From the UHGV virus genome UHGV-0038496: a stretch of DNA of 64,000 nt; one strand, written 5' to 3'. Made by a program: the position numbers and the translations under genes. How positions within the stretch are numbered: the first letter of the stretch is position 1; each line of letters opens with the position of its first letter. Below, in pieces: positions 35,399-58,668 of this stretch. Origin of the DNA: a virus. Below the pieces are notes generated by a model that did no database searches, had not been told where the DNA came from, and saw nothing but the letters and a program-made list of their open reading frames with translations.

Positions 35399-37477
35399 TT
35401 ATGAAAGGTCTGGTGGTGTCACATCTTCTGTGTAGCTTTTAAGGGCTGTCTGCCCCATGTGAACAACAGTTGACTCTTTCGCACTGAATGTGATACTATC
35501 ATTCATAAGTTGAGGATAAGCCCATACGTACTGCTGTACTTCTGGGTAATGATACTCAGTGGTGCAGATATTACCACAGATCATTCTCCACAAAAATTCC
35601 TGATAGTTCTTCTCTGGGTCATAGCCATACACCGGAGCTAAATCTTTACCTGGTACAAACCCTGCGAGGTAGTGGATTTCGTTCCTGTTCCACCCCAAGG
35701 TTTTACGAGGATGTTCGATAGCTTCGAATGAACGTTCTATTTTCCCATTCATAACCCAATCATAGCATTCTGAACAGAAGAAGTCAAGTACTCCTGACTC
35801 TTTCTTGTACTCATCCGGCAGGTTAAGTTTTTCCATCACTGTACCAACAATGGTGGGATAGAAAACAAGGACTGTAACCTGAGCGCCAGGGAATGCTGCT
35901 TTAATTCCGGCAGAGATTGTTGCAATTCTCTGACCGAATTTTTTACGACAGAATGCGATGTACCTGTCATAAACACCACCAGTTAATGGTTTGTCAATGG
36001 TGCCCATGTCAAGTGCATACTCTCCTGTTTCCCTGTAGAACAGCTCTTTTGTGGTGTAGTCGTAAATACAAGGCTTGCGAGAGTCTGTATTGTACCACCA
36101 CCACGGTTCGCCAATCTGCATAATAACAGGAAGGTTTTTACTTTTCAAGATCTGAGCGAAGTTTTTAAAGACGCTCAGCAGGAATGTCATACCCCCTTCG
36201 ATACAAGGCGATAACAGGTAGCTGCAAGGTGTATACCCTGTCTTAGCGTAGCTATCGTCCCATTCGCGTTGAGTCCATTCCAGAGGACAGGCATCACTAT
36301 AAAGCTCCATGCTGACAGAGAACATTGCATCAGTGAATCCGTAACGAGTCAAATTGTAAGCAAAGTCATCATGCCATGCTTTGGCAGCTTTGTTCAGAGT
36401 ACCTGATCTGTCGATTTCCCATTTGTGAGTTGAGCTTCCCCATGAGTAATTATAATAGTGACTCATACCGCAATAGTGGTTGATTCTACCACGGTAGCCA
36501 AGTTTCTGGAGGTTGTAAAGAACACGCGCTGGGGAAACATTCCACATATCATCGTATGCAGTGCAAGCCCTTAAATCGTGACCTTCTACAGTCAGATCAT
36601 TAAGCTGCATGTATTTCCAGCCAGTGTCCGGCTCCAGCATATCAATGCGAAGTTCACAGTCAACATTAGTTGTGCGAACGTCTGTGCTGTTGGCAACATA
36701 ATCCTTAGGCATTAACGGGATCAGGATCTTGCGAACCTGACGAGGGTCAACTGCCACCAAGTAATTATTTTTGTCAACACCCAGACAATCCTCAAAATTG
36801 AGGTGAATATCTGCTGTGGTTTTATCAGCAGAAATGTTAGAAGCATAGTCCGACATACGGACGTAAACTATTGTACCATCAACAAGAGTGATAGTAATTG
36901 TGGCCTGACCTGGGGTTGTAAAGTCAAGAGCGTTGGTGAACTTGACCCTGAACCACAGCTTGGTATTACGCATCTCATAATGATCATCATATCCTACACC
37001 AAAATGGTCGTATGTGTCAACTGTTTCCCAGATTGCTCCAGACATACCCCCCATCGTACGTGAAGTCATTGTGACAATCACTGTGGAGTTGTCTGACTTG
37101 ATCGATGTACTCTCAGTCGGCTGGCAATTTGTTACCCAGTAGCGTGGGTGGAACATTCGTTCTTCTCGTGTTCCCCATTCAAGTCTGCTCAAATCTTCTC
37201 GTGAAATGATCGTGCATTTTGCTTGTTTGGTCCCAATTACCGTCCCCTGTGAGGGGGTATGGAACTGCATATAGAAGCTACGAGGCAGTCTGTTAGGTTT
37301 TTTATCCACAATATTAACAGGGATATCCACAAAAGCAGAATCCACTGGGATGATCGCCTTGCCTTCGACGTGAGTGTAATCACGCCCAGGCACAGCGGTA
37401 TCTGCCAGGGTGTTATACATAAATTCTGCCTGGAGTGTGGTGTAATCCCTGTAAGTTCTGAATACAGCGGTTGCCAT
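35399..37477 (-). CDS. large tail-associated protein (692 aa), possibly enzymatic
   Basis: Location between baseplate and fibre genes; Trp/Tyr-rich central region (GEPWWWY); no family assigned. Confidence 0.4.
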   Translation of the reverse strand: MATAVFRTYRDYTTLQAEFMYNTLADTAVPGRDYTHVEGKAIIPVDSAFVDIPVNIVDKKPNRLPRSFYMQFHTPSQGTVIGTKQAKCTIISREDLSRLEWGTREERMFHPRYWVTNCQPTESTSIKSDNSTVIVTMTSRTMGGMSGAIWETVDTYDHFGVGYDDHYEMRNTKLWFRVKFTNALDFTTPGQATITITLVDGTIVYVRMSDYASNISADKTTADIHLNFEDCLGVDKNNYLVAVDPRQVRKILIPLMPKDYVANSTDVRTTNVDCELRIDMLEPDTGWKYMQLNDLTVEGHDLRACTAYDDMWNVSPARVLYNLQKLGYRGRINHYCGMSHYYNYSWGSSTHKWEIDRSGTLNKAAKAWHDDFAYNLTRYGFTDAMFSVSMELYSDACPLEWTQREWDDSYAKTGYTPCSYLLSPCIEGGMTFLLSVFKNFAQILKSKNLPVIMQIGEPWWWYNTDSRKPCIYDYTTKELFYRETGEYALDMGTIDKPLTGGVYDRYIAFCRKKFGQRIATISAGIKAAFPGAQVTVLVFYPTIVGTVMEKLNLPDEYKKESGVLDFFCSECYDWVMNGKIERSFEAIEHPRKTLGWNRNEIHYLAGFVPGKDLAPVYGYDPEKNYQEFLWRMICGNICTTEYHYPEVQQYVWAYPQLMNDSITFSAKESTVVHMGQTALKSYTEDVTPPDLS

Positions 37478-39700: not shown

Positions 39701-39729
39701 ATTTTACCAAAAAACAGCAAAATAGTCAA
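39701..39729 (-). promoter_or_regulatory. sigma70-like promoter (TTGACT, 17-nt spacer, TGG-TAAAAT)
   Basis: Read on the minus strand: TTGACT (rc of 39724-39729), 17 nt, TGG then TAAAAT (rc of 39701-39706). Confidence 0.5.
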
Positions 39730-39745
39730 TTACAGATACAAAAAA

Positions 39746-39761
39746 CCCCGCCGAAGCGGGG
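39746..39761 (-). terminator. rho-independent terminator
   Basis: CCCCGC-CGAA-GCGGGG hairpin followed on the minus strand by TTTTTTGTATCTG; downstream of the 39787..40233 gene. Confidence 0.7.
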
Positions 39762-39786
39762 TAATGTATCAGGAGAAACTTGAATT

Positions 39787-40233
39787 TTATTCTTCCTTGT
39801 TACGCAGTTTTTCAACCACCTGTGTAAGCTCTGCAAGGCTTTTCTCAAGTTCTTGCAAACTTGACACTTGTTGTTCCAGCTCAGCAATCCTGTTCTGTGC
39901 TTCAATCAGTTTAGCTTCCTGCTCTGCAATCAGTAATTGTTCTGTGCTTGGCTCTACAAGCTCTGGTTCTTCCATTTCCAGAGATAGAGGCATAATTGCA
40001 GCTTCCATTGCTTCATCAAAATAATCCACCAAAGCCCATTCTTCCAGCTCAAAATCGAAAATTGCCATCTGGCCTTCAGGAATTACATCCGGCGGGGCAA
40101 TTGTTGTGCACAGTGCAGGCAATCCGGTGTGAGGTGGAATTTGGATATCCACTTCGTTCACGAAGGCAAATGTGTCATTTGTCACATTGTAAACGTGAAC
40201 AACTTGCATTTCATCTGACATTTCAAAAGCCAT
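39787..40233 (-). CDS. putative tail fibre assembly protein
   Basis: Start moved to ATG at 40231-40233 (MAFEMSDEMQ...) with RBS GAGGG; N-terminal domain then C-terminal coiled coil; sits directly after the 1635-aa fibre gene. Confidence 0.4.
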   Translation of the reverse strand: MAFEMSDEMQVVHVYNVTNDTFAFVNEVDIQIPPHTGLPALCTTIAPPDVIPEGQMAIFDFELEEWALVDYFDEAMEAAIMPLSLEMEEPELVEPSTEQLLIAEQEAKLIEAQNRIAELEQQVSSLQELEKSLAELTQVVEKLRNKEE

Positions 40234-40280
40234 AGTTTTAACCCTCATGATTGAAGCGTTTGTTAATCTCTGCAACAGCA

Positions 40281-40311
40281 GAGAGGATTAACGTTTTCAT
40301 GCAATCCTCTC
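40281..40311 (-). other. intergenic stem-loop (9-bp stem, 13-nt loop)
   Basis: GAGAGGATT...AATCCTCTC inverted repeat immediately after the fibre stop codon; no U-tract on the coding strand. Confidence 0.35.
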
Positions 40312-40318
40312 TTTTCTG

Positions 40319-43300
40319 TTACGCTAAACGCACAATATAGTTAAATGCAACGTTCTTAACGGTGTTTTCCGTATTACCCGCAGCATTAACCGTGATTGTG
40401 TGGCTGTGTGCACCAATACCAACTGTATGACTGTGTGAGCCGATACCTACGGAGTGGGTGTGAGTACCATTCCCGTCGATAGATCCACTCAGTGAGTGTG
40501 TGTGGGCACCATCCCAAGAAGTTTTAGCCGCCCTCGACACAGCTGTTTTACCAGTAAACGAGCTACTGGTAAGTTTCCACAAAGTCTGTGAACCCTCAGT
40601 AGTGTAACCATCCTGGAAAGTACTAGCACCTGCACCATCCTGGACCTGACAACCGGAACGAGCGTGTTGGTGAGAACCACCAGAACCAACGCTACCCTTG
40701 AGACTGTGACCGTGCCAGCCACTTTCGCCAGTAGTTTTACTACCATAGTTGAAACCAGAAGTGGTTTTAGTACCAAGATCCACACTGTTGGAACTTGCAC
40801 CGTGGGTGTGTGATTTGATACCGTCAGCTTCGGTTGACAGAACATCACGACCAGTGGCTGGTTTACCTTTAATGGTCTGACCACGCATGTCAGGGAGAAC
40901 CCCGCTCGGATACGCAGCAGCCAGTTTAGGATAAGCAGCTTTGTCGAATCCCTGACCAGCCATGATAGCATAACCAGAAGGTGCTGTGTCAGTAGGCCAC
41001 GGTAGCGGAACACCAACCGGAACTCCTGTTTCAGCAAGGTTAACACCATCCATAGTCAGGAACTGGTTTGCTGTAACAATATTACCAGTAATGTTACCGT
41101 TTACTGAGAAATATTTATGCAAGTTATCTTCAGCTGTACCACAGTGGAATACCCAATCGGAAACACCCTGCTCGATATCGGTAGTATCTAAGATTTGGAA
41201 TTCCAAAACGTTCTTACGAGTACTTCCGTTACCCCAATAGTACAATCTGCCGTTATTAGCAGGTAAATTGGAGTTGTTGCTAGGATTGTCAGAACCACCA
41301 ACATGAATGAGCAACTCTTTATCTGTTTCGTCAACATTACGATTCGAGCGTAACTGGATAGCTTTACCAGAATCGTGCCGCCAAACTTCCCACATGTAAG
41401 TTGACCCAGTTCTATCCATGTTACCAACACGGGTATATCTGTCACCAAAACGTGTGATGTACTCCTGTACGCAGCCTTTCGGATTGTTTGCATTGTTCTG
41501 GTAAACAATCAGAGTACCAGCGTACGGTGCTGGGTAATGCCTTTCAGTTGTACAGTCAGCATCTTTTGGTTGGTGGTAAATACCCTCACGAGTACCATCG
41601 TAAGTGTTCAGGTCTGTAGCGTCAAGGCCTACACCTTTATGAGTTAAGATCCTGTTCCATGGTCTGTGATAACCAGCTTCAATGGATCTTGTATACATCT
41701 GGTCAAGGCGACCAGCCATCTGGAAAGCATAGTTTCCAGAGAATGATACAGATATACCACCAACAACCATTGAACCTTCAGGCCCGTTGGTGCTGCCAGC
41801 CATCACTTTGCACGGATTGTTAGCCCCGAACTGGTTGTTCCAGTCACCACTTGTATGGCATACAAAACCACTAGGTGAGTGGAGAGTACCGTCAGCATTA
41901 AAGTTCCAGAATTTATGAGCAGAACCTGTCATATCCCGGACAATAACCTGACCACCAGAACCTGCTGCACGGAATTCAGCCTGACCTAAGTTACCGCATT
42001 TAGAGGTGAACGTACAGTTGATTAAATCTTCTGTACCCTCGGATCTTGTCAGGAAGCCTGCGTTAGATTCAAGAGCTTTACGGGTTGTCTGGCTACCTGG
42101 GCAGATGTATTTCAGACCATTGAACCAGAGTTCTGTTTCACCCATCTCTGTTTTGTTCTGCAAGAACCATTTTTCTCTGGAACCACGATACATCCATTGG
42201 TTACAGTAGAAACCGCTTACACCACCTGTAAAGTCGAAGAGTGCACGCGTGTTGGTTATGCCGTCACCCAATAATGCCTCTTTAAGGCTGGTGATACCTG
42301 CTTTGTATACAACCCCATCGTTATTTTCCGTAGGAGTACCGGATACAAAGTCGTTAGCATAAGTACGAACATCTGTTACTACAGAACTTGCATAAACATA
42401 GACAGGGAACGCTTTTTCATGGACATAGATGGCAGCATATTGCTGATTGCCACGAGTAGGAACAAGCAACCCCAAAATGGACGCTTCATTCTGGTAAAAG
42501 TTGATAATACCGTAGGCAGAATCACCTCTGTCTGTCCAACCACCAGTGCGATACCAACATCTCAGGGTGGAACAGTTCATAGGTTCACTACCCATCGCAG
42601 ATCTGGTATGAATGAGGAGGTCTGTACCAATTGTACCGTTTACCGAAGGTGTGTTGATAATAACAGGATAATATTTATCCTCTTCCGCACCATCAGGTTT
42701 CTGAATTACGAAAGGTGTCGTGTTTACAGCAGAACCACCTGTACCAGTGCTGCTACCACCGCCTTCACCACCGGAGATACCTATGCGTTCTAACCATGCT
42801 TTAACTTCGGTATCAGATACACAGCCTGTACCACCTTTTTCTACTGGGAGTACACCTGTGATCTTATCATCGGTTAAACCAACAGAATCCATTTTACCTA
42901 AAGCACGACCACCGAGGTTAGTCCATGCAGTGGCTGGATCTTTGGCACCAGTACCACCATTGGCAATAGGAAGTGGGATAGTACCTAGACCTTTAGAAGA
43001 ATAACATCCCCAAGCGTCACCACCAGTATTTACGTACAAATACGCAGTACCTGCTTTATTACAAAGCTGAGTCTCACCACCAGTTGTCTGAGTCAGACGA
43101 TCAACCGAAAGGTTGACACGAGCATCAGCAACGGTTCTCGCACCTGTACCGCCTTGGGAGATACTCAAAGGTTGCCAGTTACCAATTTTAGGGTTAAATG
43201 CCCCCCACTGACCGTCAGCATCAACCTGTAAGTAGCAGCCGTTAGCTTGAACGTCAGTAGAACAAACGATAGTCCTTGTATCGGTGGAACGGATGAAGCG

Positions 43301-45226
43301 GGTTAACTTCAAGCTAGTTTTCAAACCGTCGAGACTGTTTGCACCTGTACCACCTTTAGCCACAGGCAGCACACCAGTGATCTTGCCATCTGTCAACGCA
43401 ATGCTATCAAGTTTACCCAGAGCTTTACCACCCAAGTTAGCCCATGCGGTGTTCGCATCTCTTGCACCAGTACCACCCTGACCGATTGCCAGCGGGATGT
43501 AAGAGCTGTTGGCAATATCATAAGCACCCCAGAGTTTACCCTCTGTAATGATCAGTTTGGCAGTGTTTGTTGGGTTGTTGACGGCAGTTTCAGAACCTGC
43601 CTGTACAAGTCTGTTAACCTGTAAAGTATTACGGGTTGTATTCAGATCACGTACAGTAAAGGTGTTACAAGCAACAGTATACGGAACTTCAAAGTTACCG
43701 TCCTCGTTGAAACCCAGGTATCTGTGAATCTGGTTACCTTCTGGACCTTTTTTCAGGTGCAGGGTTAACCATGTTTTATTATCGTTACGGACTTCTGAGT
43801 AAATACGGAAACCGTGTTCTTCTGTCGTACCGTTAGCTTTGTATTTAGTACCATTCAGAATACCTGAAGGACCAACGTTGTTACTTACAGCTCTCAGATA
43901 CAGATTGCTAAAACTGGGTGAATTACCTGCACCAATCCCTATCCACTCACGGAAGCCGTTCGTGTTCACAGGTCTTGACCAGGTTACCCATTGCTGCCAG
44001 GTTTTTTCACCTGCATTATACCAGCGAGAATAATAGGTATCTTCGGTGTTGAACGGATGATATTCCTGACGGCAACCATCTCCCCCGTTCACGTTGTTCT
44101 GCAATACAATCAGTACACCTGCCTGTTGGCAAGGATAACCGTTAGCAGCAGTAGCAAGAGCTGACACTGGTTGATAGTAAACACCAGCTTCATTACCTTT
44201 CAGGTTATTGATATTGAAATTAGCTTCCAGTGCAGTATGGGATCTGTGGAATACCGCAAAGTTACGACGGAACGAAGCAGCATCACGAACACCTGTACCA
44301 CCCTGTTCTACACCCAGAGGTTGCCAGTTATTAGCAGTAGGGTTGTAATACCCCCAACGACCAGAAGTATCCAGTTGCAGGTACGGGACATTACCAATGT
44401 CTTCACCAGAGAAAATAGCCGTACGAGACGGATTAGTCTGGTCAAAACGGTTGAATTCAGATTTTAATGCATGTCTGTGGCATACCGCTTTGTGAGTTTC
44501 TTTGGAAACACGGATGGTGTAGATCGCACCAGTTTTGCCACCCTGCATAATAGCTTCGTACACGTTGGAAGTGGAGGTTTCCGCAACTTTCGATACGAAA
44601 CCATTTAAAGTGCCTTCACCTCTTGCAACATCAGGGAACTGAACAGTTGCTTTTTCATCCATTACGATGTGGCCTGCATAGCCTTCGAGGTAGTTAGCAT
44701 TTGATACAACAGTTACCCTTTCGAAGCTCAGGCCGTTCAGCACACGTACAGCTTCAAAAGCAGCATCAATAGCTTCATCCATAGTATCCTGAATGGTTCT
44801 ACCATCTTCAGTCAATACCAGGGAAGCACCGATTGTGGAACCTAACTCGTCACGTAAAGACGGGTCAGTGTAAACCGACCATGCACCATCAGTTACGCCA
44901 CCATCTTCGTAGGGACTTGACAATGAAGGTACAGTATGCGGGTATCCACCTGTCCAGCGTAAGTATAAATCTTCTTCCTCGTAGTAGCAGAAGTCCATCG
45001 GACCATTCAGGGTGCCACCGTCATGGAAGTTGACAACGTGGGAGAGAGTCGGATCACCTGCCATCAGATCTTTCACTGAAGTTCTGCGGGTGAGGTCTGG
45101 TTGCTGAACGATCAGATAGTCTTCTTCTTTGTTGACTTCTGTGGTTACAGGCAAAGACTCAATCCTGACAAGTTTCACATCTGCCATTGTTTCTCCTGTT
45201 AGGAGGGCCGAAGCCCTCCAGATCAA
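40319..45226 (-). CDS. giant tail fibre protein (1635 aa) with internal repeats and C-terminal His-X-His array
   Basis: Repeated modules around GGTG (QGGTGARD..., ANGGTGAKD..., GVLPV.KGGTG); C-terminal HTHSLSG...[23 protein letters not shown]...[11 protein letters not shown]. Confidence 0.7.
42826..43500 (-). repeat. tandemly duplicated coding modules within the giant fibre gene
   Basis: Two roughly 60-codon blocks (about 42826-43010 and 43306-43500) encode near-identical peptides (...[25 protein letters not shown]...); also seen as mirrored plus-strand shadow ORFs in the track. Confidence 0.5.
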
Positions 45227-47829
45227 ATATACAAGTTGCGATATTGAGCGTAAAGGCCCAGACCTCTCAGTATTTCACCGGAGTGGAAACCTACAGGATC
45301 TGAGTTAGCCCAACAGCCGTTAAGGATATTAGTGCCATTGACAAAATAATGTCTCTGTAAGTCATTCATGCAGGCTTCAACTACTGGGTCAATCTGTGCC
45401 CATGTGTAACCTGCCAAACCTGCATAACAACAACCAGCTAACCATTCAGCGGTGATCCATTGTCTGTCACCTCTGTCCTGATTGGAATAGCCACCTGTCG
45501 TACTGAAATCTGTGGGTAATCTGCCACCATTCGCTGACTGGAATCTGTTCAGGAAAGCAATCCATTTCTGGCAATACTGTTCCAGACGTTCATCCACAGG
45601 TTTTTTATTTTTCTTCAATTCGTAAAGTGCTCTGCAACCAGCAAGGAATGCTCTGCTTTGCATTTTAGAATTGTCCAGCATCATGAACCCACCAATCAGG
45701 CTACCTTTCTGCCAGTTGTAAGCTGTGTAGACAGGACCTTCTGTGCGAAATACGACTGAATATTGCTGCTGAGCATCATACAGGAATTTAACACAGTTAG
45801 TAAGCTCTGCAAGATCTGTAGGTTCTTCACCCATACAGAATACCGCAGGGTACTGTTCGCCAGCTACCGGATAGGCAGGTCTTTCTTCCAGCAAATAATT
45901 GTCTGGATCAGCAACCTTACCTGTAGGCCATGCCCCTGGTGCATAGTTCAGGCTGTCAAATTTGTAATCTGCGACATAGCAATCACCAAGTTTAGCAGTT
46001 GCTGCCACACGGGATGCGAGATGCATTGAGAATCTTACGATGTAAACATCACCTACAAAGTTAAAGAACTCTGGTAAATTGTTTACACAATATAGATTGA
46101 AAATGCCATCGCCAATCTTAGTAGTTGCCAGCTTAATGGTGATCTGAGTCACCTCTTTCAGGTTGGCAAAGAACGGTTTCACTTCATCAGCAGTGTGATT
46201 AGGCTGCGTAGTTTCAAGCAGAAAATCACCAATTGACAAGTTTTCAGTGACCCAGTTTGCACCTGTGCCATGTAGATCAGTATACCATAACCAGCCATCT
46301 TTATCAAGGAAATTAATCCTGACAATATCTGCTGTGCATTGATAAGTAATGGAACGCAGTGCTCTCGTGCCATTAAAATCAAAAACAACCTGACCGCTTG
46401 AGATATTCAACGAAGCGTAGTTATCGCTGTGGCCTAGCAAGGTACTGGAGTAGCCCATGCTCAGAACAGCACCACCACTGGCTGTTAATCTTTCTTCTTT
46501 TGGCAGAAGATAGGATTCACCGAACTCTGGAGATACCCTTACGAAGTCGCGGATCTCAAAAGTGTTGGTCTGCATACCTGTTCCACCGAACGGAACACCA
46601 ACACGGTACTCTATGTTTTTACCATAACCATCATCAATGGTGAAATATGGCTGGAACAGAACATTATCACCACCGAATTCGATTACTATGGCAGAATCCC
46701 TGTTCACTTTATACGTAAGACCGCGTTGAACAACTTCACAAGGTTTACGTGCCCCCATACCAATGTTGATATAACCTTCGGCATCACGGGTGAGTGTAGG
46801 TCTGTTACCTGTGATTGTCACATTACCATCTGCAAAAGGCGCTCTAATCTCCGTGGTGCGTCTGCAAATCATATCATAGGCATTTGGGTTACAGTACGCT
46901 AATAGCTCGCTGTGGGCCTTCTTATAGGCCTCAAAATACTTGCTTTCGTAAGTGATCGAATAAAGTGCATAGCAAGCATCACACCACATTGCCAGTGCGT
47001 CAACAGGTTCTGGCTGATCAGGTGCTGTCACGTTGCATGGAGAAGTGATCACCGGATCATAGCGTTTGATCTCTTTACCGCCCTGTGCAACAGGTAGACG
47101 TACTGCATAGTTTAATTTGTGTGTGCCGTTAACCGAAGTGCTGGCTAACTGAACAGTACCGTACTCAGAAGCAGCATGTCCTGTATCAGCGATAGTGCCG
47201 TTGGCCCAGTAACGATTACCATCCCAGGCTATGTACCAATCAACAGGGTATTTCGTACCAGATGCATACCAGTTCGGAGCAGCATCTGTACCTGCATACA
47301 CATCAGAATTCATAGAATTACGACCTAAAGCACCATCGTAGGCCATAACTGCAACATCAAGATACTCACCCCAGGTAGGTGAGCCAGAGGGAATTTTAGC
47401 TCTCCCTTTGCTGAAAGAGATGTTCACCCCTTTAAAACCACCATGTTGTGGAATACCGTCATCTGTTAATGGGTAGTGGGAAATACGATTGCATTTTCCT
47501 TCTACTGCAAAGTTACCTGTTAAATGTTTATCATAAGCATCCCAGCAGGCTTTTGCTCTGGCTAACCAGAACTCATCCTCTGTTGCTCTGTATACCTCTA
47601 CGTAACCCAGGATCAACACAGCCTGAGCCTCTGGAGTCGTCCAGTCATTGTTGATAGTGGAACCCTTCCAACCGCTGGCGATCAGATGTTCAGGATCAAC
47701 AAGAAAGTTCTGACTATTCGGGCTAACTGTAAGGCCAGTGTTTTTATCGAGGCACGTCCTGTGCCCCTCTATCATCTGGTATACGTTATCAATGCCGTGT
47801 TGAATACGCATATTACCTAGCTCCTGCAA
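45223..47829 (-). CDS. large tail / baseplate-associated protein (868 aa)
   Basis: Position in the structural operon, overlapping the giant fibre gene start; no family assigned. Confidence 0.4.
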
Positions 47830-48481
47830 TGATTAGTGAGCCGTACCACGTTAATCCGTTATCATACGTCTCAAGTTTAAAAATGTCTGTAGCACCCTGG
47901 GTAAAGGTAAGAATAGGTTTTCTACCAAATGCCCAACGGATGTTATCAGGCCAGTAAATTTTACTGCCACCTGCGGTCTGTGTGACTACAACCGTAACAG
48001 AACGTGCTGTACCTTCAACACCTTCTGTCTCATTGTCAAAGACTAATGTGGTGTCAGTAGTCAGGCGAACAATGAAAGTATCTGCAACTTTAAGGTCAAG
48101 TTCCAGTGTACCACCAATGGCACCATAGTCAATTATGCCACCAGAAGCAGTTACCGGAAGTTCACCGAAGACTGCCCATGCACCAGCTCTCACACCACCA
48201 GCTCCTTCCAACGTGGAGTCCGGCAGGATTACTTTCGGATACTCGCCGTTCCAGGTGTAGTAGCGGTTAGTCTCAGTATCATAGGCAAGGTCTTTTTTGC
48301 TATCTAAATGACCACCTTCGTTAAAATAGACAATCTTCGCAATGCCGATATCATTCAGCATATCATTAATTTTGGCCTTACGTGTGCCATCTGACTGGTT
48401 GACAACTAAGAAGTCATCTGTCAATACTGTAGACACATCATCAAGGTCTGGGATAGGAATTGTAGGATAAGCTACAGCCAT
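47813..48481 (-). CDS. hypothetical tail / baseplate protein
   Basis: 222-aa ORF in the structural operon. Confidence 0.4.
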   Translation of the reverse strand: MAVAYPTIPIPDLDDVSTVLTDDFLVVNQSDGTRKAKINDMLNDIGIAKIVYFNEGGHLDSKKDLAYDTETNRYYTWNGEYPKVILPDSTLEGAGGVRAGAWAVFGELPVTASGGIIDYGAIGGTLELDLKVADTFIVRLTTDTTLVFDNETEGVEGTARSVTVVVTQTAGGSKIYWPDNIRWAFGRKPILTFTQGATDIFKLETYDNGLTWYGSLIIAGAR

Positions 48482-48491
48482 AAGATCTCCA

Positions 48492-49256
48492 TTAGTTCAC
48501 ATCAATACCACGGTCAGATTGGTTAGCGATAGCTTCGCCATCTGTTGTCGAAATAACACCAGAAAATTCACGTTCATCAACAACAGTTTTGAAATTGTTT
48601 CTGTTGATCGTTTGATCAGCATCCGTAAGCAGCAGGTCTTTGTTCTGTGCAAGCAGAGAACCAACTGGGATTGGGTTTTCCATTTCAGGACCAGACCATT
48701 CGCTCCACCATGTAGCATCACCAGTACGCGGTAGACGGAAGTTGATCAGATAGTAAAGTTTGTTAGCCCACTTGATCCAACCATCGTCATCACACAGGGA
48801 TGTAGAGCCAGCTTCTGGTTGTGGGTATTCAAACTGGTCGAAGCCTATGAATGCAATCCTGACGATCTCATTCTCTTTGGTAACCACCTCAAAGAATGCC
48901 TGATAGGTACGGGATCTGCGATCCATTGTGGATTCGAAGTTAATAATGTTCAAAACATCCGGTTCTTCACGGGCAATGGAACGAATCTTGTTATCAAGAA
49001 TGGTTTTCATTACCTTTTTGCCAATGTAATCGAGATATGGGAAACCGAACGTCTCGTCCCAATACCACGACCCTTTCCATGTGTTGAACCTCATCCAAAG
49101 CCTTTGTCGTAGGCTTATCTGGTTTGACTCTATCACCTGAAGACCAGAACGTATGTCCAGGTCCCCCGTAACAGGGTCCATTAAGAAATCTGAATACAGT
49201 GTTGACATTTCTTCTCCTGTTAACCGGGTGTAGAAGTGCGACCGCCATGAGGACAA
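48492..49256 (-). CDS. hypothetical tail / baseplate protein
   Basis: 254-aa ORF in the structural operon. Confidence 0.4.
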   Translation of the reverse strand: MSSWRSHFYTRLTGEEMSTLYSDFLMDPVTGDLDIRSGLQVIESNQISLRQRLWMRFNTWKGSWYWDETFGFPYLDYIGKKVMKTILDNKIRSIAREEPDVLNIINFESTMDRRSRTYQAFFEVVTKENEIVRIAFIGFDQFEYPQPEAGSTSLCDDDGWIKWANKLYYLINFRLPRTGDATWWSEWSGPEMENPIPVGSLLAQNKDLLLTDADQTINRNNFKTVVDEREFSGVISTTDGEAIANQSDRGIDVN

Positions 49257-49903
49257 GCATAAGTGTGGGCTTTGTATTCCTGATAGAAACTATCAAGGTC
49301 AACGCCGTTGGCAGTGATCATTCTCCCTTCAGGAGTGACCTTTGCCCCATTCATCACGATGTTACCATCTGTCTTAGCAGTCAGGCTTGCTGCCCCGTTG
49401 TTGAAGCTAAACTCACCAGATTGATCCACAACCAAAGTACCAGCCGGAGTCTGCAATGTAAAGTCTCCGTTCGGTGTCATTGTGAAATGCACTTGGTCAT
49501 TATACAGCTCAACGTTCTCCGGGTCAATAGGCATTGCATTACCATCTGAATGGACAGAAGTAATCGCCCATCCAGGGAACAGGCCATGAGTTTGCATATC
49601 GTCGTTGTTGTTCTCATTACGTTCAGAGAACTGCAAACCAACGATATCCCCAGGCTTGATTGGTAACGTCAGCCTTGCCTTACCACCATTGGCAGATACC
49701 ATTTGAAGCGGAACATCGTAAATCAGTGGAAAGCGATCCACATCGTCATCTTCAAAATATGTCTCAGCCAGAGGCTGGACAGAAGCAGAAGGAATGGAGT
49801 AGTCCACAGAGACAACTCTTGCTCTCACAGAAGTGTGAAAGCCTCGCATCGTCTCCTCGATGAAACTACGAAACGCTGCATCTTTTCTGGCAAGTGTTCC
49901 CAT
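49220..49903 (-). CDS. putative baseplate spike / assembly protein V-like
   Basis: 227 aa with a beta-rich repetitive C-terminal half, in the position of P2 gpV / Mu gp45-type spikes. Confidence 0.4.
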   Translation of the reverse strand: MGTLARKDAAFRSFIEETMRGFHTSVRARVVSVDYSIPSASVQPLAETYFEDDDVDRFPLIYDVPLQMVSANGGKARLTLPIKPGDIVGLQFSERNENNNDDMQTHGLFPGWAITSVHSDGNAMPIDPENVELYNDQVHFTMTPNGDFTLQTPAGTLVVDQSGEFSFNNGAASLTAKTDGNIVMNGAKVTPEGRMITANGVDLDSFYQEYKAHTYACPHGGRTSTPG

Positions 49904-50568
49904 TATTCCTCCTGACTGTCATCAACTAGTAGAGAATCTCTGTAAGAAATTGCGTCAGATAGGTCTTTAAACTGCCTTCTTCTCTTCCCCGGAACTTGAA
50001 CTCTCCACCTGCCACGTTCTTTAGCAAAACGGATATATTTTTCTCCAGACAGATTATCAGACCTTGCTCTTACCTTAATCTTAGGTGCTATACCTGAGGC
50101 AATATCCTCCTCCGCTCGTTCCCTGGCCTCCACAGCTTCTTCAAAAGTATCAAAACTTCCAAGGCTATATTTATGGTTACCATGCACTACCGCTGCTTTC
50201 CACTTGTGCTTAGTATTGCAATAGTGGACACCCGCGACACCTGAAGTGTTATTAATATTTAAATTTTTTCTTTTAATACAAGAGGTGTTCACAGCAGGTG
50301 TGACCAGCTCTAAATTCTCAATGCGGTCATCCCCCCGAATGCCGTTTATGTGGTTAATAACCAACCCTTCTGGGATAGGGCCATTGAACATTTCCCAGAC
50401 AACCCTATGTCTGTAGAAACGTTCATGACCTACACCAACATGCCAGTACCCGTGCCCCGAATCGCACCCAACTTTTGCCCCTGTGTAATGCCCGTTGCGG
50501 CTGGTTTTCCAGAACAACTCCCCATCTACATATAGAAAATGCTCATGAAAATTAATCATCGCTTCCAT
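49903..50568 (-). CDS. free-standing HNH homing endonuclease with AP2-type DNA-binding domain
   Basis: HNH_3 motif LVINHINGIRGDDRIENLELVTPAVN; AP2-like SGVAGVHYCNTKHKWKAAVVHGNHKYSLGSFDTFEEAVEARERA; likely start is the second ATG at 50559 (RBS GAGGA); overlaps both neighbours. Confidence 0.75.
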   Translation of the reverse strand: MEAMINFHEHFLYVDGELFWKTSRNGHYTGAKVGCDSGHGYWHVGVGHERFYRHRVVWEMFNGPIPEGLVINHINGIRGDDRIENLELVTPAVNTSCIKRKNLNINNTSGVAGVHYCNTKHKWKAAVVHGNHKYSLGSFDTFEEAVEARERAEEDIASGIAPKIKVRARSDNLSGEKYIRFAKERGRWRVQVPGKRRRQFKDLSDAISYRDSLLVDDSQEE

Positions 50569-51601
50569 CCTCTATAACACCAGCGTAACACTCCCCAAGG
50601 CCCAATTCTGTAATCCAATCACCTCCTTCAACTTGCCCTTTGTGGTGAACTGTAATCACTTTGTAGAAGCCTGTGTACCGTCTACTTTTCAGGTAGATTG
50701 TTGATTCAGGGATAATTGCACCATTCAGCACCGTGGTCACCGTCAGGCCAACATCCTCTTTTGGATTTTTCTTTTTCTTTTTCTTACCAGTTACACCAGC
50801 TTGTTCATCTGTGATCGGGCTTTTACCTTCTTTGCCACCACCTTTGGCAGCAGCTTTTGCTTTACGTTTTTTAGCAGGTTCTGGGTTCTTAGGTGTGGGA
50901 GAACCGTGCATACCAGTCTCTGCACTGATCTCGTAGACTGAATCTTTAAACCGTTTACCAGTCTTAGTCCAGTAGACTGCGCCATCCTGAACGCTGAAAT
51001 TAGAGTTGGTAAGACGTGCAAACTTCCTAAGGTTCTCAGCCGTGTTGCCGGAGAAAGCCATAGAATATTGCAAAGTCTGATTCCCGAACTTAACCACACG
51101 TCCACGGGGCAGGTTCATATCGTTCAAAAGATCATTCAACACCGTATCCATCGGAGTACCTTTGGCATACGATCTTGTTGTCTGGCATTTGATAATGTTC
51201 TCTGTACCATCACCGAAGATCAGTTTAGTCTTACGGGTTGGACCATCCCACGTATCTTCCACAAACTCAACTGTGCCGGAGAAGATAACCTGGTTATCGT
51301 TATCATAGCCTGCTTCAAGCAGAACAGCAACGGCATCTGCTTGATGGGCATCAAGATAGTTCACTGTATCATCTGACAAGTTGTAGACAATCACATAGCC
51401 TTTGTTTGGCTCTTTGGAATTATCTTTCTGCAAATCAAACTCGATGTTGGCGAATCCGGTATCGGAGCTGATCTCATAGACACCGGAATCTGATTCACTA
51501 CGCTTTTGAACTGCTTTCGGGATATCCACCTTCGTTTTCCCTTTAGCGACCACACATCTACCGAAGAGTAATCGCCAGGTTCTGTGTCTGTACTCAGCCA
51601 T
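50552..51601 (-). CDS. putative baseplate hub / tail protein with poly-Lys tract
   Basis: 349 aa; position after tape measure and two small tail genes; internal KKRKAKAAAKGGGKEGK...GKKKKKKNPKED. Confidence 0.4.
   Translation of the reverse strand: MAEYRHRTWRLLFGRCVVAKGKTKVDIPKAVQKRSESDSGVYEISSDTGFANIEFDLQKDNSKEPNKGYVIVYNLSDDTVNYLDAHQADAVAVLLEAGYDNDNQVIFSGTVEFVEDTWDGPTRKTKLIFGDGTENIIKCQTTRSYAKGTPMDTVLNDLLNDMNLPRGRVVKFGNQTLQYSMAFSGNTAENLRKFARLTNSNFSVQDGAVYWTKTGKRFKDSVYEISAETGMHGSPTPKNPEPAKKRKAKAAAKGGGKEGKSPITDEQAGVTGKKKKKKNPKEDVGLTVTTVLNGAIIPESTIYLKSRRYTGFYKVITVHHKGQVEGGDWITELGLGECYAGVIEDGSDD
50755..50780 (-). repeat. homopolymer-rich simple repeat (CTTTTT)n encoding a poly-lysine tract
   Basis: Plus strand tttttctttttctttttctt inside the hub-like gene. 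Confidence 0.6.
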
Positions 51602-51604
51602 AAA

Positions 51605-51982
51605 TTACTCCATGTAGATTTCATCGTAGAGGCTTGCAGGTGTACCGTACACCAGTTGCAGCTCAGAACGTGCACCCATATTATAGCGACCACAGCGGCC
51701 CCAGAAAAGCTGATCCTTAAAACTCAGGACTATCAGCTTACCTTTTGGTAAGTCATCCCTGTAATGTAGGCCATCGAGAATGTCCTGGCAGGCGCAAACT
51801 TTTCGGCATACCAGAGGATCATCCCCTAATGCACCGAGAGATAACCACCAGGATTCATCCCTCTCATTCCATTGCAGTCGCATTTCGTAGGTTTCATTAT
51901 CAAGCACAACACGCATAGTTTGGTCTGCATATCCATCAATGTCCCACGTAAACGTGATGACACATACTTCTTTGATTTCCAT
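51605..51982 (-). CDS. hypothetical tail protein
   Basis: 125-aa ORF in the structural operon. Confidence 0.4.
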   Translation of the reverse strand: MEIKEVCVITFTWDIDGYADQTMRVVLDNETYEMRLQWNERDESWWLSLGALGDDPLVCRKVCACQDILDGLHYRDDLPKGKLIVLSFKDQLFWGRCGRYNMGARSELQLVYGTPASLYDEIYME

Positions 51983-51990
51983 ACGCCACC

Positions 51991-52875
51991 TTATTTGTTG
52001 TCATGCATGTAGTTATTTTGCTCAGAAGGAACGATTGTAGAGTTACCACCATATTCCTGACGATAGGCTTCCTGAACAGTCATACCAGAGTTTTTTAGCT
52101 GGATGTTTTTCTGTCCGTCCCACTTCTGTTTAGCATTGGTGTATGTCGTATCTGCATACGGACTGGCATTAGCAGAGTTACCAACGTTACTGTCCTTCGT
52201 GCAATCGTTAACCGCACCTTTCTGTTTTGATTTATCAACCTTTTTAGGATTTGTGTAGACAGTAGCATTGACCATCTTGTTGAGGACGAAAGTTCTGAAC
52301 TCTGTCAGCTCAACATCGAACACCAAAGCAGCACCTTCACCTGTGCTTTTCTTCGCACTACATTTGGTAACTATGTAGTTTTCAAGGATAGCTTCCTCGG
52401 TTACCAACGTAACCAATTGTCTTCTCTTGATAACTTCACCCATTGCCTGTAATGCAGCTTCAGGCCTTGCAGAGTCTGCTGGTCTTTGTGGGTCAGTGTT
52501 TCTGTCAATGTAGTTTTGTTCGTACACTATGTGTGGTGAAGTATTCACCCTACCTGTGAAGGAGAATACTGCATCCTTGATCACTGCGTGATCCGAAATC
52601 GTAACACGGTCTTCGACCGCAAACTGTGTTTTATCAACACTTCTGTCGAAAGTATAATTCTCAATCTGGTCAAATATGATAGCGATATCGTTGGTGAAGT
52701 TTTTACCCTTCAACTCAATGTTACGACCACCATAATTCAAGCCGCTGATGAACAAAGTAAACTGTACGTCCTCTGTCTCTTTCTCAGCTTCTTCTGCCTT
52801 CTCTGACCTGACCAGCTGAGGTTTATATAGGTCTTTTTCATCGACCACTTTTTCTACACCGGGTGTATATGGCAT
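51991..52875 (-). CDS. hypothetical tail protein
   Basis: 294-aa ORF; RBS GGAGAGG; first gene after the terminator-promoter pair downstream of the tape measure gene. Confidence 0.45.
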   Translation of the reverse strand: MPYTPGVEKVVDEKDLYKPQLVRSEKAEEAEKETEDVQFTLFISGLNYGGRNIELKGKNFTNDIAIIFDQIENYTFDRSVDKTQFAVEDRVTISDHAVIKDAVFSFTGRVNTSPHIVYEQNYIDRNTDPQRPADSARPEAALQAMGEVIKRRQLVTLVTEEAILENYIVTKCSAKKSTGEGAALVFDVELTEFRTFVLNKMVNATVYTNPKKVDKSKQKGAVNDCTKDSNVGNSANASPYADTTYTNAKQKWDGQKNIQLKNSGMTVQEAYRQEYGGNSTIVPSEQNNYMHDNK

Positions 52876-52909
52876 AACCTCTCCAGTTGCTAGTAGTCAC
52901 CATTTCATA

Positions 52910-52938
52910 ATTATACCATAGAAATGGGGTTTTTACAA
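52910..52938 (-). promoter_or_regulatory. sigma70-like promoter with extended -10 (TTGTAA, 17-nt spacer, TGG-TATAAT)
   Basis: Read on the minus strand: TTGTAA (rc of 52933-52938), 17 nt, TGGTATAAT (TATAAT = rc of 52910-52915). Confidence 0.55.
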
Positions 52939-52954
52939 GTTACATAAAAGAAAA

Positions 52955-52971
52955 GGGGCCGCGAAGGCCCC
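52955..52971 (-). terminator. rho-independent terminator after the tape measure gene
   Basis: GGGGCC-GCGAA-GGCCCC hairpin followed on the minus strand by TTTTCTTTTATG. Confidence 0.7.
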
Positions 52972-52979
52972 TTGAAAGG

Positions 52980-54088
52980 TTAGTTAGTAGGACTTGCAAA
53001 CAGGTTAATATCTTTCCAATTTTCCCATTCAAATCTTGCATCCAGCATTTCTTCGAACTGAGCAGCGTCAAACTCGATTGTAATTTTACCCTCACCAACT
53101 TCCAGAGGAATTGGAGGAATTTCGAAGGATGGTAACGGATCCAAAGGTGTACTTGGAGTTGGATTAGCTCTGTAGGTAATCGGGTTAAGCATACGGTAAT
53201 CCAGGCCAAGGAAAGATGAAATGCCGTTAACACCATCGACAAGCCACTGCGGATGTTTGGTCACGTCAGTTTCCTGGTGGTAGTTTTGCATCCAATCATC
53301 CAACATACCAGCACCTTCGTACCCCATGTAGCCCAGAGCTAATGGTCCTTTCCATTTCCACAGTCCACCAAGTAACCGTGCAAACAATCCTTTCTTAGCC
53401 ATGGCTGCTGCACCACCCGCAGCTGCACCACCTGCGGCGGCACCACCGAGAGCACCTGCAACACCTCCGGCAGCTTTAATCATACCCAGGGTTGCGGCAA
53501 CAGCTTTGACGATTCTCAGCAATTTCCATACGGCGTTAACAACAACTAAGATGGAGAAAGCATAGCCTACCCATTTAGCTTTGCTGAATGTTTCATCAAC
53601 AGTGTCACTTGTATCTTTGACTTCTTTTTTCAGCAGACCAAAGTGGTCTTTGACTTGCAACCACCAGATACGGATACTGACAATCGTGTTGTTCAATTCA
53701 CCAACAATGTCGTTCAGACCCTGGATAAATCCAGATACAAACTCACCAGCCTGCATGATCATTGGGGTGAATGTTTCTCCTGTGCGGATCAGGGTGTAAT
53801 AAAACTCGGTGAGTTCATCTGACCATGTGGTGAACAGTTTTTGTTTAGTCAATTCGATGAAAGTTTTCAAACGGTTTTCAGCCAGAACGTTAGATTTCTG
53901 CATACGTTCATAACCAGCAGCTGACGCTTCGTTCATGTACTTAGCAACGTATTTCATCATTTTGGCTGTTTTGACCTGGCCTTTCTGCATCATGTCCATG
54001 AATTGTTCCATAGACAGCTCAGACAGGTTGAAAGCCTCTTTTGTTGCTTTAATGAACGGCTCGTAAGCACCTGGCATTGCTTCAGCTA
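52980..54088 (-). CDS. tail tape measure protein, exon 2
   Basis: Track ORF is TTG-initiated with an in-frame stop just upstream at 54108-54110; contains a Gly/Ala-rich hydrophobic segment (GGVAGALGGAAAGGAAAGGAAAMAKKG) typical of tape measure proteins; predicted 3' splice site after G at 54089. Confidence 0.6.
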
Positions 54089-56142: not shown

Positions 56143-56167
56143 ATTCTCTCCTGGTTAGTAATAAAAA

Positions 56168-56196
56168 AGGGCCGGATCCTTTCGGAACCAGCCCTT
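56168..56196 (-). terminator. rho-independent terminator (probably partial) upstream of the tape measure gene
   Basis: Long hairpin AGGGCTGGTTCC-GAAA-GGATCCGGCCCT followed on the minus strand by TTTTTTATT; no promoter between it and the tape measure start. Confidence 0.6.
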
Positions 56197-56200
56197 TGCT

Positions 56201-56446: not shown

Positions 56447-56457
56447 TACGACTTTGC

Positions 56458-56922: not shown

Positions 56923-56969
56923 TTCTCGTTACCCTTAAAGTTAGTTGTCATGCGTTATCGCATAGATTT

Positions 56970-56998: not shown

Positions 56999-57008
56999 TG
57001 CAAACAGA

Positions 57009-58563: not shown

Positions 58564-58596
58564 CGAAAAACTCCTAGTAGTTTTAAACACAGGGGA

Positions 58597-58662: not shown

Positions 58663-58668
58663 GTAACA

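Follow-up and report, generated by a model that had tools for sequence, protein, structure and literature searches.

The receptor-binding tip of the T4 long tail fibre protein gp37 (PDB 2XGF) consists of a collar (D10) and a needle (D11); in the needle, seven iron atoms are coordinated by the histidines of HxH motifs, and residues of the tip contact the receptor (PMC6957217). The tip is carried on a chain of gp34-35-36-37, and a dedicated assembly gene lies directly downstream of gp37. The lateral tail fibres of Vequintavirus phages such as rV5, MaxBurger (Bas54, bas54_0027), and JEP1 (QOC67651.1) contain modules with a GGTG motif and a central body, and the Vequintavirus-type fibres among our relatives (P0109-P0120, including JEP1; ~1270 aa) have a self-cleaving chaperone domain, Peptidase_S74, at their C-terminus. 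The MaxBurger orthologue has 1272 aa. The fibre described here, which is encoded in a 64,000-nucleotide stretch of the virus genome UHGV-0038496 (the window), has parts of both types, and we are fairly confident that it is a mosaic and serves an uncultured myovirus of the Vequintavirinae-like (rV5-like) kind as its lateral (long) tail fibre, a T4-type tip and its helper being combined with a shaft that has GGTG motifs as joints. The mosaic is new and its parts are known; the rule by which the shaft is spliced at GGTG is the only point that may be new.

The open reading frame at 40319..45226 is indeed present. Its 1635 aa, the length given in the initial annotation, are those of the maximal, TTG-started frame that reaches 45226. 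The start is probably an ATG at 45187, which has a good ribosome-binding site (AGGAG) 6 nt upstream, and the tail fibre gene would then extend over 40319..45187 and code for 1622 aa plus stop. This product is 100% identical to P0001, a protein previously called on public metagenome contigs and located on a contig of 140.7 kb. Among the other window ORFs of at least 150 codons, none reaches two GG[TV]G motifs or three H-x-H motifs. The initial annotation did not name a strand; the gene, and with it all fibre features below, is on the minus strand. For comparison, we used a set of 120 fibre homologues, mostly from metagenome assemblies.

Residues 1-240 (44468..45187) form the N-terminal anchor, with a Tail_spike_N domain (PF18668, E=8.6e-11) at aa 52-104 (44876-45034). 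In the PDB, the anchor matches N-terminal regions of fibres and spikes from phages (9occ, 9lna, 9d84, 9d80) and is nearly invariant among the relatives (column homogeneity 0.90-0.99); judging from these homologues, it would fix the trimer to the baseplate or the fibre network. Over aa 1-300, the fibre shares 52% identity with the N-terminal part of the lateral tail fibre of rV5/MaxBurger (118 phage records). Further downstream lie a Gly/Ser linker and the conserved central body (aa 801-1178, 41654..42787), where the match to phrog_6578 'tail fiber protein' is best. The Vequintavirus fibres have a homologous central body, and nt 3273-3574 of the gene are 78-82% identical to tail fibre genes of rV5-like phages. 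The identity of the window DNA to any phage in the searched collection is at most ~79%, in patches. The gene order is also shared with the Vequintavirus phages: a 222-aa Tail_spike_N protein and a fibre of ~862-866 aa come before the lateral fibre gene. Unlike the S74-tipped type, which occurs in P0087 and P0109-P0120, the window fibre has a gp37 tip and a separate, putative chaperone gene; a domain scan of the fibre detected a Collar domain instead of Peptidase_S74 (PF13884).

The last 259 aa (aa 1364-1622, 40322..41098) are a receptor-binding tip of the T4 gp37 type. Over their full length they match residues 2-242 of the 2XGF chain, which covers gp37 residues 785-1026, with E=1.7e-66, and they are 52% identical to T4 gp37 residues 782-1026 and 58-60% identical to many Tequatrovirus gp37 proteins. 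The collar is formed by a Pfam-detected segment at aa 1392-1439 (40871-41014; Phage Tail Collar domain, PF07484, 41.7 bits versus a cutoff of 24) plus the returning C-terminal strand, NTENTVKN(V/I)AFNYIVRLA, which is conserved and near-identical in T4 gp37. The needle (aa 1460-1596, 40400-40810) carries seven H-x-H motifs (aa 1460, 1492, 1506, 1562, 1576, 1585, and 1594), so the C-terminal His-X-His array of the initial annotation, including the quoted string, is real. The motifs are spaced by 32, 14, 56, 14, 9, and 9 residues, compared to 32, 14, 37, 14, 9, and 9 in T4, and all seven align. Seven motifs are present in 98 of 101 relatives, in which only the central gap differs (35 to 58 residues), and in 45 aligned sequences 10 of the 14 tip histidines are invariant and the other 4 are at least 90% conserved. 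With three chains, the seven motifs may build seven octahedral axial metal sites, as demonstrated for T4; metal binding as well as receptor binding by the window tip are predicted by homology.

The array had been said to recall the tips of both T4 long and short tail fibres. The similarity to gp37 is borne out by the match to 2XGF and by all seven motifs, but that to gp12 goes no further than the collar domain. A short-tail-fibre tip of the gp12 type in place of a gp37-like needle would explain the Collar domain, which is common to gp12, and the match of aa 1388-1492 to the PDB chain 'Short tail fiber' 9cuy (E=4.6e-6). However, the gp37 match spans the full 259 aa and is better by ~60 orders of magnitude, the seven HxH motifs and the C-terminal strand are conserved with gp37, and a PDB sequence search found no similarity to the gp12 receptor-binding head past the collar, only aa 1388-1492 matching 9cuy. 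We regard a gp12-like tip as extremely improbable. The rest of the window fibre is unrelated to gp37, and the gp37-type tip is here part of a single 1622-aa, Tail_spike_N-anchored polypeptide, whereas four proteins make up the T4 chain.

By homology, the chain would turn at a head loop of variable sequence (aa 1509-1561, 40505-40663), located between HxH no. 3 and no. 4, and contact the receptor there. Among the relatives, no other part of the tip is as poorly conserved as this loop. The T4 receptor-contact residues (~933-953) have no meaningful alignment in the window tip, in which the segment is 19 aa longer, and because the loop is both longer and unrelated in sequence to that of T4, a different receptor specificity is to be expected. 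The mismatch in the head concerns specificity, not fold.

Between the central body and the tip lies knob 2 with a linker (aa 1179-1363, 41099..41653), at which conservation among the relatives falls. Its sequence pattern presumably resembles that of the knobs of R-type pyocin fibres, although the window fibre has no match to the R-type pyocin knob (6CL5) at the sequence level. A model of aa 800-1622 gave a weak Foldseek match to the R1 pyocin fibre 6cl5 (probability 0.97, E 0.013), to be read with the low confidence of the model (mean pLDDT 42.5) and with the aligned residues unreported; the same search returned 6eu4 (probability 1.00, E 0.013) and no match at E<=0.001.

Knob 2 is the start of an exchangeable distal cassette, which includes a second gene. 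This gene (39787..40233, minus strand) begins 85 nt past the fibre stop and codes for a Tfa/gp38-like assembly protein of 148 aa that matches two PHROG families, phrog_105 'tail fiber assembly' with E=5.6e-16 and, with E=5.9e-15, phrog_7290. The protein is 48.6% identical to lambda orf-194 (Tfa) over aa 15-84 and 24% identical to T4 gp38 (E=2e-5), which places it closer to the N-terminal domain of lambda Tfa than to gp38; a precomputed match to PF28596 (Caudo_TAP_N) is marked 'weak'. Like lambda Tfa, P2 gpG, and T4 gp38, it has an N-terminal domain of ~70 aa of the fibre-binding type (aa ~8-84), a position after the fibre gene, and co-variation with the tip. In place of the Caudo_TAP C-terminus of lambda-type Tfa, the window protein has an acidic linker and a C-terminal, heptad-like helix of ~50 aa. 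Caudo_TAP (PF02413) was not detected in it even at E values up to 10, in a scan in which Nonagvirus HdK1 Tfa gave 1.4e-31 and T4 gp38 gave 0.076, and a sequence search of the PDB gave no match for the 148-aa protein.

The fibre-tfa intergenic region (40234..40318, minus strand) contains a strong hairpin that includes the fibre stop codon (~40273-40321, minus strand; MFE -25.9 kcal/mol, z -4.3) and a micro-ORF of 20 codons (40238-40300, minus strand). The region is nearly invariant in 9 loci, and therefore offers no covariation by which the hairpin could be judged. A hairpin with a T-run that resembles an intrinsic terminator (39745..39762, minus strand) closes the fibre-tfa unit and is followed by a promoter-like site (39701-39729). 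The extent of the cassette is evident from the comparison with the S74-tipped locus L004, in which DNA homology to the window stops at 41653 and resumes at 39761, in the terminator. The window and all 11 distinct relative loci whose tip is of the Collar type have the tfa-like gene, and L004 lacks it. Hence, tip and helper are one exchangeable cassette that begins with knob 2, ends with the terminator, and alternates in the relatives with the self-chaperoning Peptidase_S74 tip.

In the modular model of Tfa proteins, the N-terminal domain binds the fibre and a helical C-terminal domain trimerizes (PMC9608196). By analogy, the N-terminal domain of the 148-aa protein may bind the tip and its C-terminal helix may bring three fibre chains into register, which would make the protein a chaperone. 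Alternatively, it could stay on the needle as a distal adhesin or cap that aids receptor binding: the Tfa chaperones of Mu and Ur-lambda are found in mature phages (PMC9608196), and the window protein always accompanies the tip and is ~90% conserved. But this conservation holds across loci with differing head loops, the variable element of the family thus being the head loop of the fibre and not the 148-aa protein; the latter has only the N-terminal Tfa-type domain and the helix, and no adhesin-like domain; and T4 particles do not contain gp38, the protein that assists the closest homologue of this tip (PMC9608196). A stable cap is, therefore, rather unlikely, and we favor a transient chaperone.

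The shaft between anchor and central body may be pictured as a series of small modules plus two knobs (knob 2 lying farther downstream), each shaft module having a Pro-Leu...Gly-Gly-Thr-Gly motif. GGTG occurs six times in the fibre (aa 296, 571, 612, 679, 744, and 785). Module A (aa 244-318, 44234..44458) carries GGTG no. 1 (44291-44302) and is followed by the knob 1 region (aa 319-547, 43547..44233), which separates GGTG no. 1 from no. 2. Then come module B (aa 548-627, 43307..43546) with no. 2 (43466-43477) and no. 3 (43343-43354), module A' (aa 627-701, 43085..43309) with no. 4 (43142-43153), and module B' (aa 721-800, 42788..43027) with no. 5 (42947-42958) and no. 6 (42824-42835). Within the shaft, module A' varies most among the relatives (column homogeneity 0.46-0.68). 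A PDB sequence search with aa 244-830 gave no match. AF2 monomer models were poor (mean pLDDT 49 for aa 1-830 and about 42 for aa 800-1622, with values under 50 in the tip); within aa 1-830, 10-residue blocks with pLDDT in the 70s were confined to knob 1 (aa ~351-410 and ~451-500, maximum 80).

The duplication of internal modules, as noted before, was confirmed in an ungapped self dot-plot of the protein. Three pairs stand out: aa 548-627 and 721-800 (80 aa, 47 identical [59%], score 234), aa 244-318 and 627-701 (75 aa, 31 identical [41%], score 162), and aa 325-376 of knob 1 and 1192-1243 (52 aa, 24 identical [46%], score 124), versus top scores of 39-46 in five shuffled sequences. The gene itself, for which the initial annotation proposed a dot-plot, likewise has internal repeats. 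At the DNA level they are weak overall: the best (D1/D2) has 155 nt with 72% identity (42825-42979 versus 43344-43498), a family of 41 nt occurs in five copies around five of the six GGTG codon sets, and the longest exact in-register match is 14 nt. In four full-length genes, B and B' have 56-70% DNA identity with exact in-register runs of 6-15 nt. The codon GGT accounts for 81% within GGTG and 70% elsewhere; the GGTG codons are not unusually uniform, and thus nothing marks them as dedicated recombination signals.

Across the 120 relatives, all large indels in the shaft are clean GGTG-to-GGTG splices, giving ~12 architectures if spacing differences of 1-4 aa are ignored. There are eight indel types (65, 67, 108, 132, 173, 275, 383/384, and 448 aa), and each equals a GGTG-GGTG distance, for which the chance is ~0.004 for a single indel length. 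These are length differences, the direction of the indels being unrooted, also where we speak of a deletion class. In the 275-aa class, for example, the knob 1 region is missing as one unit (~25 relatives). Unaligned sequences read directly from the left flank of module i over GGTG into the right flank of module j, and most splice types join non-equivalent modules (no. 1-2, 3-4, 4-5, 1-4, and 1-5) that share only the GGTG core. Relatives of the 173-aa class keep a module that is chimeric between B and B', with at least 2-3 crossover positions within a homologous stretch of ~50 aa: the first GGTG, the second GGTG, and the interval that separates the two (P0068, P0055). P0057 and P0011 differ in architecture despite flanks that are 99% identical, and therefore architecture does not follow relatedness. 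In this pair (94% and 98% DNA identity), homology is lost within ~8 nt past GGTG no. 2 and sets in again exactly where the next GGTG common to both begins, a foreign cassette being bounded by GGTG cores. GGTG motifs thus act as splice joints, and the relatives are any-to-any fusions in which modules are deleted or foreign cassettes are swapped in. The length variation that the initial annotation had expected at the duplicated modules is indeed seen in these whole-module indels and in the B/B' chimeras.

One may ask whether the length classes are artefacts of short-read repeat collapse, gene calling, or alignment placement, since nearly all relatives come from metagenome assemblies and one of them, P0080, looks like a truncated gene call without aa 1-213. 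Repeats with 56-72% DNA identity are, however, far too diverged to collapse in assembly. All variants keep the reading frame, and the genes that flank them on their 60-146-kb contigs are intact; the 173-aa deletion recurs in ~18-20 clusters from independent sources; P0067 is present in NCBI, JGI, and ENA; and the junctions are visible without any alignment. An artefactual origin is very improbable, and the classes are taken as genuine.

How the joints arise is less certain. The duplicated DNA blocks had been proposed as recombination sites; length does vary at the duplicated modules, but with 56-72% identity and exact runs of at most 15 nt the blocks are not a substrate for ordinary homologous recombination. 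Homology-dependent unequal crossing-over between blocks that are kept as substrates would account for the three crossover places of the B/B' chimeras, and the 155-nt repeat with 72% identity does exist; moreover, the single-strand-annealing recombinases of phages tolerate divergence. Yet B and B' share only short exact runs, the majority of splices connect modules with nothing but the GGTG core in common, the foreign cassette is GGTG-bounded as well, and the codon use of the motifs is not specially homogenized, all of which makes unequal crossing-over unlikely. In the model that we prefer, microhomology from a 12-14-nt GGTGGTACNGGTG core would enable the GGTG joints, and selection would keep only those splices that preserve the structural register. 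Microhomology plus selection fits the data better than classical homologous recombination; preferential breakage at GGTG and random breakage followed by selection are both compatible with them.

In T-even phages, recombination at a 'His box' and at 'glycine islands' reportedly swaps adhesin specificity (Tetart et al., 1998, J Mol Biol). There, too, short conserved motifs of a fibre gene serve as junctions for segment exchange; the GGTG joint of the window fibre differs in that it lies in the shaft, deletes modules or inserts cassettes, and alters length and domain content, which goes beyond an exchange of adhesins. A search of the accessible literature library turned up no paper on 'tail fiber' together with 'GGTG'. 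It is quite possible, and we put it forward tentatively, that Pro-Leu...GGTG serves trimeric fibre shafts in general as a joint that keeps their register, so that free fusion of one GGTG to another would leave assembly intact. If so, phages would tune fibre length and insert or remove knobs and foreign domains through GGTG, and the motif would be a ready-made design rule for fibre engineering. GGTG-bearing modules are also found in the fibres of T5-like, rV5-like, and Nonagvirus/Seuratvirus-like phages and of ~75-kb podoviruses. HxH motifs are junctions in only two odd variants, P0104 and P0098.

The long (lateral) tail fibre of this uncultured rV5-like phage belongs to a protein family in which shaft modules have been lost and cassettes replaced repeatedly at a Gly-Gly-Thr-Gly (GGTG) motif. 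The open reading frame of 1635 codons initially annotated at 40319..45226 is real, but it lies on the minus strand and its ATG-started product is shorter: the frame has its first ATG at 45187, preceded by AGGAG, and the resulting protein has 1622 aa (to which all amino acid positions refer). This product is exactly identical to P0001, a protein encoded on a 140,706-bp ENA metagenome contig. Between the ribosome-binding site of the 1622-aa fibre and the stop codon of the fibre gene upstream of it (868 aa) sits a G+C-rich 7-bp hairpin with a UUCG loop (45202-45219, minus strand; GGAGGGC-UUCG-GCCCUCC; −15.3 kcal/mol, z −2.4), which is not followed by a T-run.

Duplicated modules had been claimed from inspection of the sequence, and a self dot-plot bore this out. 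Since a BLASTP self-comparison returned the identity match only, it was replaced by an ungapped BLOSUM62 diagonal scan with five shuffles. Three strong off-diagonal segments were found, aa 548-627 versus 721-800 (80 aa, 59% identity, score 234), aa 244-318 versus 627-701 (75 aa, 41% identity, score 162), and aa 325-376 versus 1192-1243 (52 aa, 46% identity, score 124), compared to top scores of 39 to 46 in the shuffled controls. The modules of the shaft follow the order A, knob 1, B, A′, B′, with GGTG motifs (numbered 1 to 6) at aa 296, 571, 612, 679, 744, and 785; two of them lie in B and two in B′. Every GGTG is preceded by Pro-Leu/Val plus two to four residues, and in four cases a hairpin-like W-G-x-(Y/F)...PL segment lies ahead of it as well. 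In the DNA, these repeats are weak: the top pair spans 155 nt at 72% identity, a 41-nt family with five copies surrounds five of the six GGTG codon sets, and exact in-register matches extend to no more than 14 nt (GGTGGTACTGGTGC). Comparable motif arrays were absent from all other open reading frames of at least 150 codons in the window. Neither Pfam nor NCBIfam holds a family for the GGTG modules, and a PDB sequence search with aa 244-830 gave no match. AlphaFold2 monomer models, built from alignments of 45 to 49 sequences, were poor both for aa 1-830 (mean pLDDT 49.2, pTM 0.22) and for aa 800-1622 (mean pLDDT 42.5, pTM 0.29) and give hints of secondary structure only; they suggest that every GGTG sits in a strand-strand-turn-helix pattern, and the knobs are modeled with moderate confidence. 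A Foldseek search of the PDB with these models gave no match at E ≤ 0.001, and the knob domains may have a weak fold similarity to R-type pyocin fibres in these low-confidence models.

The proposed length variation at the duplicated modules is found in natural relatives, as whole-module insertions and deletions that run from GGTG to GGTG. The 120 homologues can be grouped by length into classes of ~1620, 1555, 1518, 1487, 1447, 1280, 1240, 1165, and 1711 aa, among others, and in pairwise and multiple alignments all large shaft indels lie between GGTG motifs. If spacing differences of 1 to 4 aa are ignored, ~12 shaft architectures exist among more than 100 relatives. Deletions of 65 aa (GGTG 4 to 5), 67 aa (3 to 4), 108 aa (2 to 4), 132 aa (3 to 5), 173 aa (2 to 5; about 18 to 20 clusters), 275 aa (1 to 2, removing knob 1; about 25 clusters), 383/384 aa (1 to 4), and 448 aa (1 to 5) were observed, and their lengths equal the distances between the motifs exactly or to within 1 aa. 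The chance of a random in-frame deletion mimicking such a splice is ~0.004. In the unaligned sequences, the junctions consist of the left flank of one module, GGTG, and the right flank of another. In the class with the 173-aa deletion, the sole retained module is a B/B′ chimera whose switch point is at the first GGTG in most members, at the second in others, and between the two in a small number, so this class originated, or was remodeled, on more than one occasion.

Insertions obey the same borders. A foreign domain of ~193 aa (…DVPQFRDVVLSHSTDS…NLKVDHLDISGSS.TG.LP.SN) with GGTG at its borders is present in P0057, P0063, P0070, P0071, and P0097 (e.g., locus L018:1501-6636), where it takes the place of knob 1 in some relatives and of the middle modules in others; its only PHROG match, to phrog_5481, is weak. 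Architecture does not track relatedness: the flanks of P0057 (1711 aa) and P0011 (1621 aa) are 99% identical, whereas P0057 is only 86% identical to another protein sharing its architecture. In the DNA of this near-isogenic pair, which came from the protein database, homology (94% on the left, 98% on the right) breaks ~8 nt past GGTG no. 2 and resumes with the first nucleotide of the next GGTG that both have. IMG/VR yielded four related contigs from one metagenome, ~92% identical to each other, with no near-isogenic pair among them.

How the modules are exchanged is a separate question. The duplicated DNA blocks had been put forward as sites of recombination, but as a classical recombination substrate they are too diverged: in four full-length genes, B and B′ are 56 to 70% identical, with exact runs of 6 to 15 nt. 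Furthermore, most splices join non-equivalent modules. On both counts, ordinary homologous recombination is unlikely to account for the splices in general, although homology-guided exchange probably contributes within the B/B′ pair. The codons of the motif, inspected for a signal of recombination at the DNA level, are not convincingly homogenized (GGT makes up 81% in the motif versus 70% elsewhere). The most economical reading would be that microhomology at the 12- to 14-nt GGTG core brings splices there and that strong selection retains those that preserve the structural register of the trimer. An invertase or a diversity-generating retroelement was dropped from consideration as a matter of judgment; the variation is between genomes.

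The distal end of the fibre had been likened to the His-X-His (HxH) tips of both T4 tail fibres. For the long fibre the likeness is strong, whereas for the short fibre, gp12, it is limited to the collar. Residues 1364-1622 matched the receptor-binding tip of T4 gp37 (2XGF) with an E value of 1.7e-66 in a PDB sequence search; BLASTP gave 52% identity to residues 782-1026 of T4 gp37 (NC_000866), and translated searches gave ~58 to 60% identity to many Tequatrovirus gp37 proteins. Seven HxH motifs pair one to one with those of T4, with spacings of 32, 14, 56, 14, 9, and 9 residues compared to 32, 14, 37, 14, 9, and 9 in T4. All seven are retained in 98 of 101 relatives, and the sole gap that varies is the central one, the head loop (35 to 58 residues), which is also where the tip is least conserved. 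In T4, seven iron atoms lie along the needle, coordinated by the HxH histidines, and residues ~933-953 in the turn touch LPS and OmpC (PMC6957217). Given the 2XGF match, the aligned HxH motifs, and the variable loop, we regard the tip as a genuine gp37-family tip whose head, which would contact the receptor, is different and larger. Needles of the gp37 type have already been reported beyond the T-even phages (PMC12143355, PMC11990801).

The needle is altered in two relatives, both of which retain the gene for a small assembly protein (helper) downstream of the fibre. P0104 (L017:3001-6705) has a shorter needle with five HxH motifs, one having been lost from the outgoing and one from the returning strand. 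In P0098 (L016:3001-6384), nearly the whole needle is missing, and the collar is fused directly to the C-terminal strand, leaving one HxH.

The helper (39787-40233, minus strand, 148 aa) is encoded 85 nt downstream of the fibre. Over its first ~80 residues it matches families of tail fibre assembly proteins (phrog_105, E = 5.6e-16); identity to lambda Tfa is 48.6% over aa 15-84, and that to T4 gp38 is weak (24%, E = 2e-5). A Caudo_TAP domain is absent, Pfam and NCBIfam hold no family for the helper, and a PDB sequence search returned noise only. The C-terminal part consists of an acidic linker followed by a ~50-residue helix whose heptad pattern is moderate. In published structures, chaperones of the Tfa type are described as modular: the N-terminal domain binds the fibre, and the helical C-terminal domain trimerizes (PMC9608196). 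The predicted helper fits this scheme with a minimal C-terminal part, and a simple helix in place of the usual domain fits the published model, in which that domain need only trimerize.

Comparison with L004, a relative locus whose fibre ends in a Peptidase_S74 tip, delimits a second exchangeable segment. DNA identity is 86 to 89% up to position 41653 (aa ~1178); the distal fibre and the helper gene then have no appreciable DNA similarity to L004, and identity resumes at 39761, at an intrinsic terminator-like hairpin with a T-run downstream of the helper (39745-39762). The helper gene is missing from L004 but was found in each of the 11 distinct relative loci whose tip is of the Collar type. 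Thus, knob 2, collar, needle, and helper form one exchangeable unit that extends to the terminator; this two-gene distal cassette, a clear-cut case of its kind, swaps with a self-chaperoning S74 tip in one clade. An S74 domain also ends the ~1270-aa relatives of the lateral-fibre type found in the homologue search (P0109-P0120, including that of JEP1).

The stop codon of the fibre gene and the spacer of 85 nt that follows it (88 nt in all; 40234-40321, minus strand) can form a strong hairpin (−25.9 kcal/mol, z −4.3) and are almost invariant in nine loci whose flanking genes differ by 10 to 20%, so that there is no covariation by which to judge the structure. Inside this segment lies a micro-ORF of 20 codons (40238-40300; MKTLILSAVAEINKRFNHEG) with its Shine-Dalgarno sequence and ATG within the stem and its stop 4 nt ahead of the helper ATG. 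The hairpin and micro-ORF may control translation of the helper.

At the other end of the fibre, aa 1-240 are nearly invariant across the family and contain a Tail_spike_N domain that matches the N termini of solved phage fibres and spikes; this region is the predicted anchor. Gene order and an N terminus with 52% identity make the gene the counterpart of the "lateral tail fiber protein" of rV5 and MaxBurger. The window DNA is up to ~79% identical, in patches, to rV5-like phages (Vequintavirinae), and no record in the August 2025 phage collection spans most of the fibre gene or positions 46000-64000; the source is therefore placed in an uncultured sister clade of these phages. The protein search returned more than 100 relatives of the fibre on contigs of 60 to 146 kb, which points to an abundant uncultured Vequintavirinae-like clade behind the metagenome sequences.

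A 222-aa protein with the same Tail_spike_N domain is encoded two genes upstream of the fibre (47813-48481, minus strand). Its family, phrog_7760, likewise matches the large fibre, at aa 16-171. A paralogous anchor common to two neighboring genes suggests alternative or branched fibres at the same attachment site.

In sum, the fibre is, as judged from its sequence, a new mosaic of known parts, a metal needle of the gp37 type, a helper of the Tfa type, and an anchor of the rV5 type; as an annotation it is ordinary, since all parts are of known kinds. The new element is possibly the rule that any GGTG can be spliced to any other, which we did not find described in the literature library searched; a search on repeat length variation also returned nothing relevant. 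The relatives constitute a natural deletion and insertion series that marks GGTG as the exact place at which modules can be cut out of or pasted into a trimeric fibre. These joints can be tested directly and are of use in host-range engineering, in which the choice of the fusion point is the main practical difficulty.

Further genes of the window deserve mention. Within the baseplate/fibre cluster of this otherwise contractile-tailed-looking phage, a 692-aa protein (35399-37477, minus strand) strongly matches the N-terminal and TIM-barrel domains of a "non-contractile tail sheath protein" (PF23844 and PF23845, E = 1e-76). A 1943-aa open reading frame (24328-30159, minus strand) matches phrog_15684, of unknown function, and has weak matches to RCC1-like and Ig-like domains; its product is probably one more large fibre or a decoration protein. 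At about 16000-24000 the GC and AT skews reverse sign, and open reading frames lie on the plus strand at 17401-23460; this region is a divergent transcription block in an otherwise minus-strand window.
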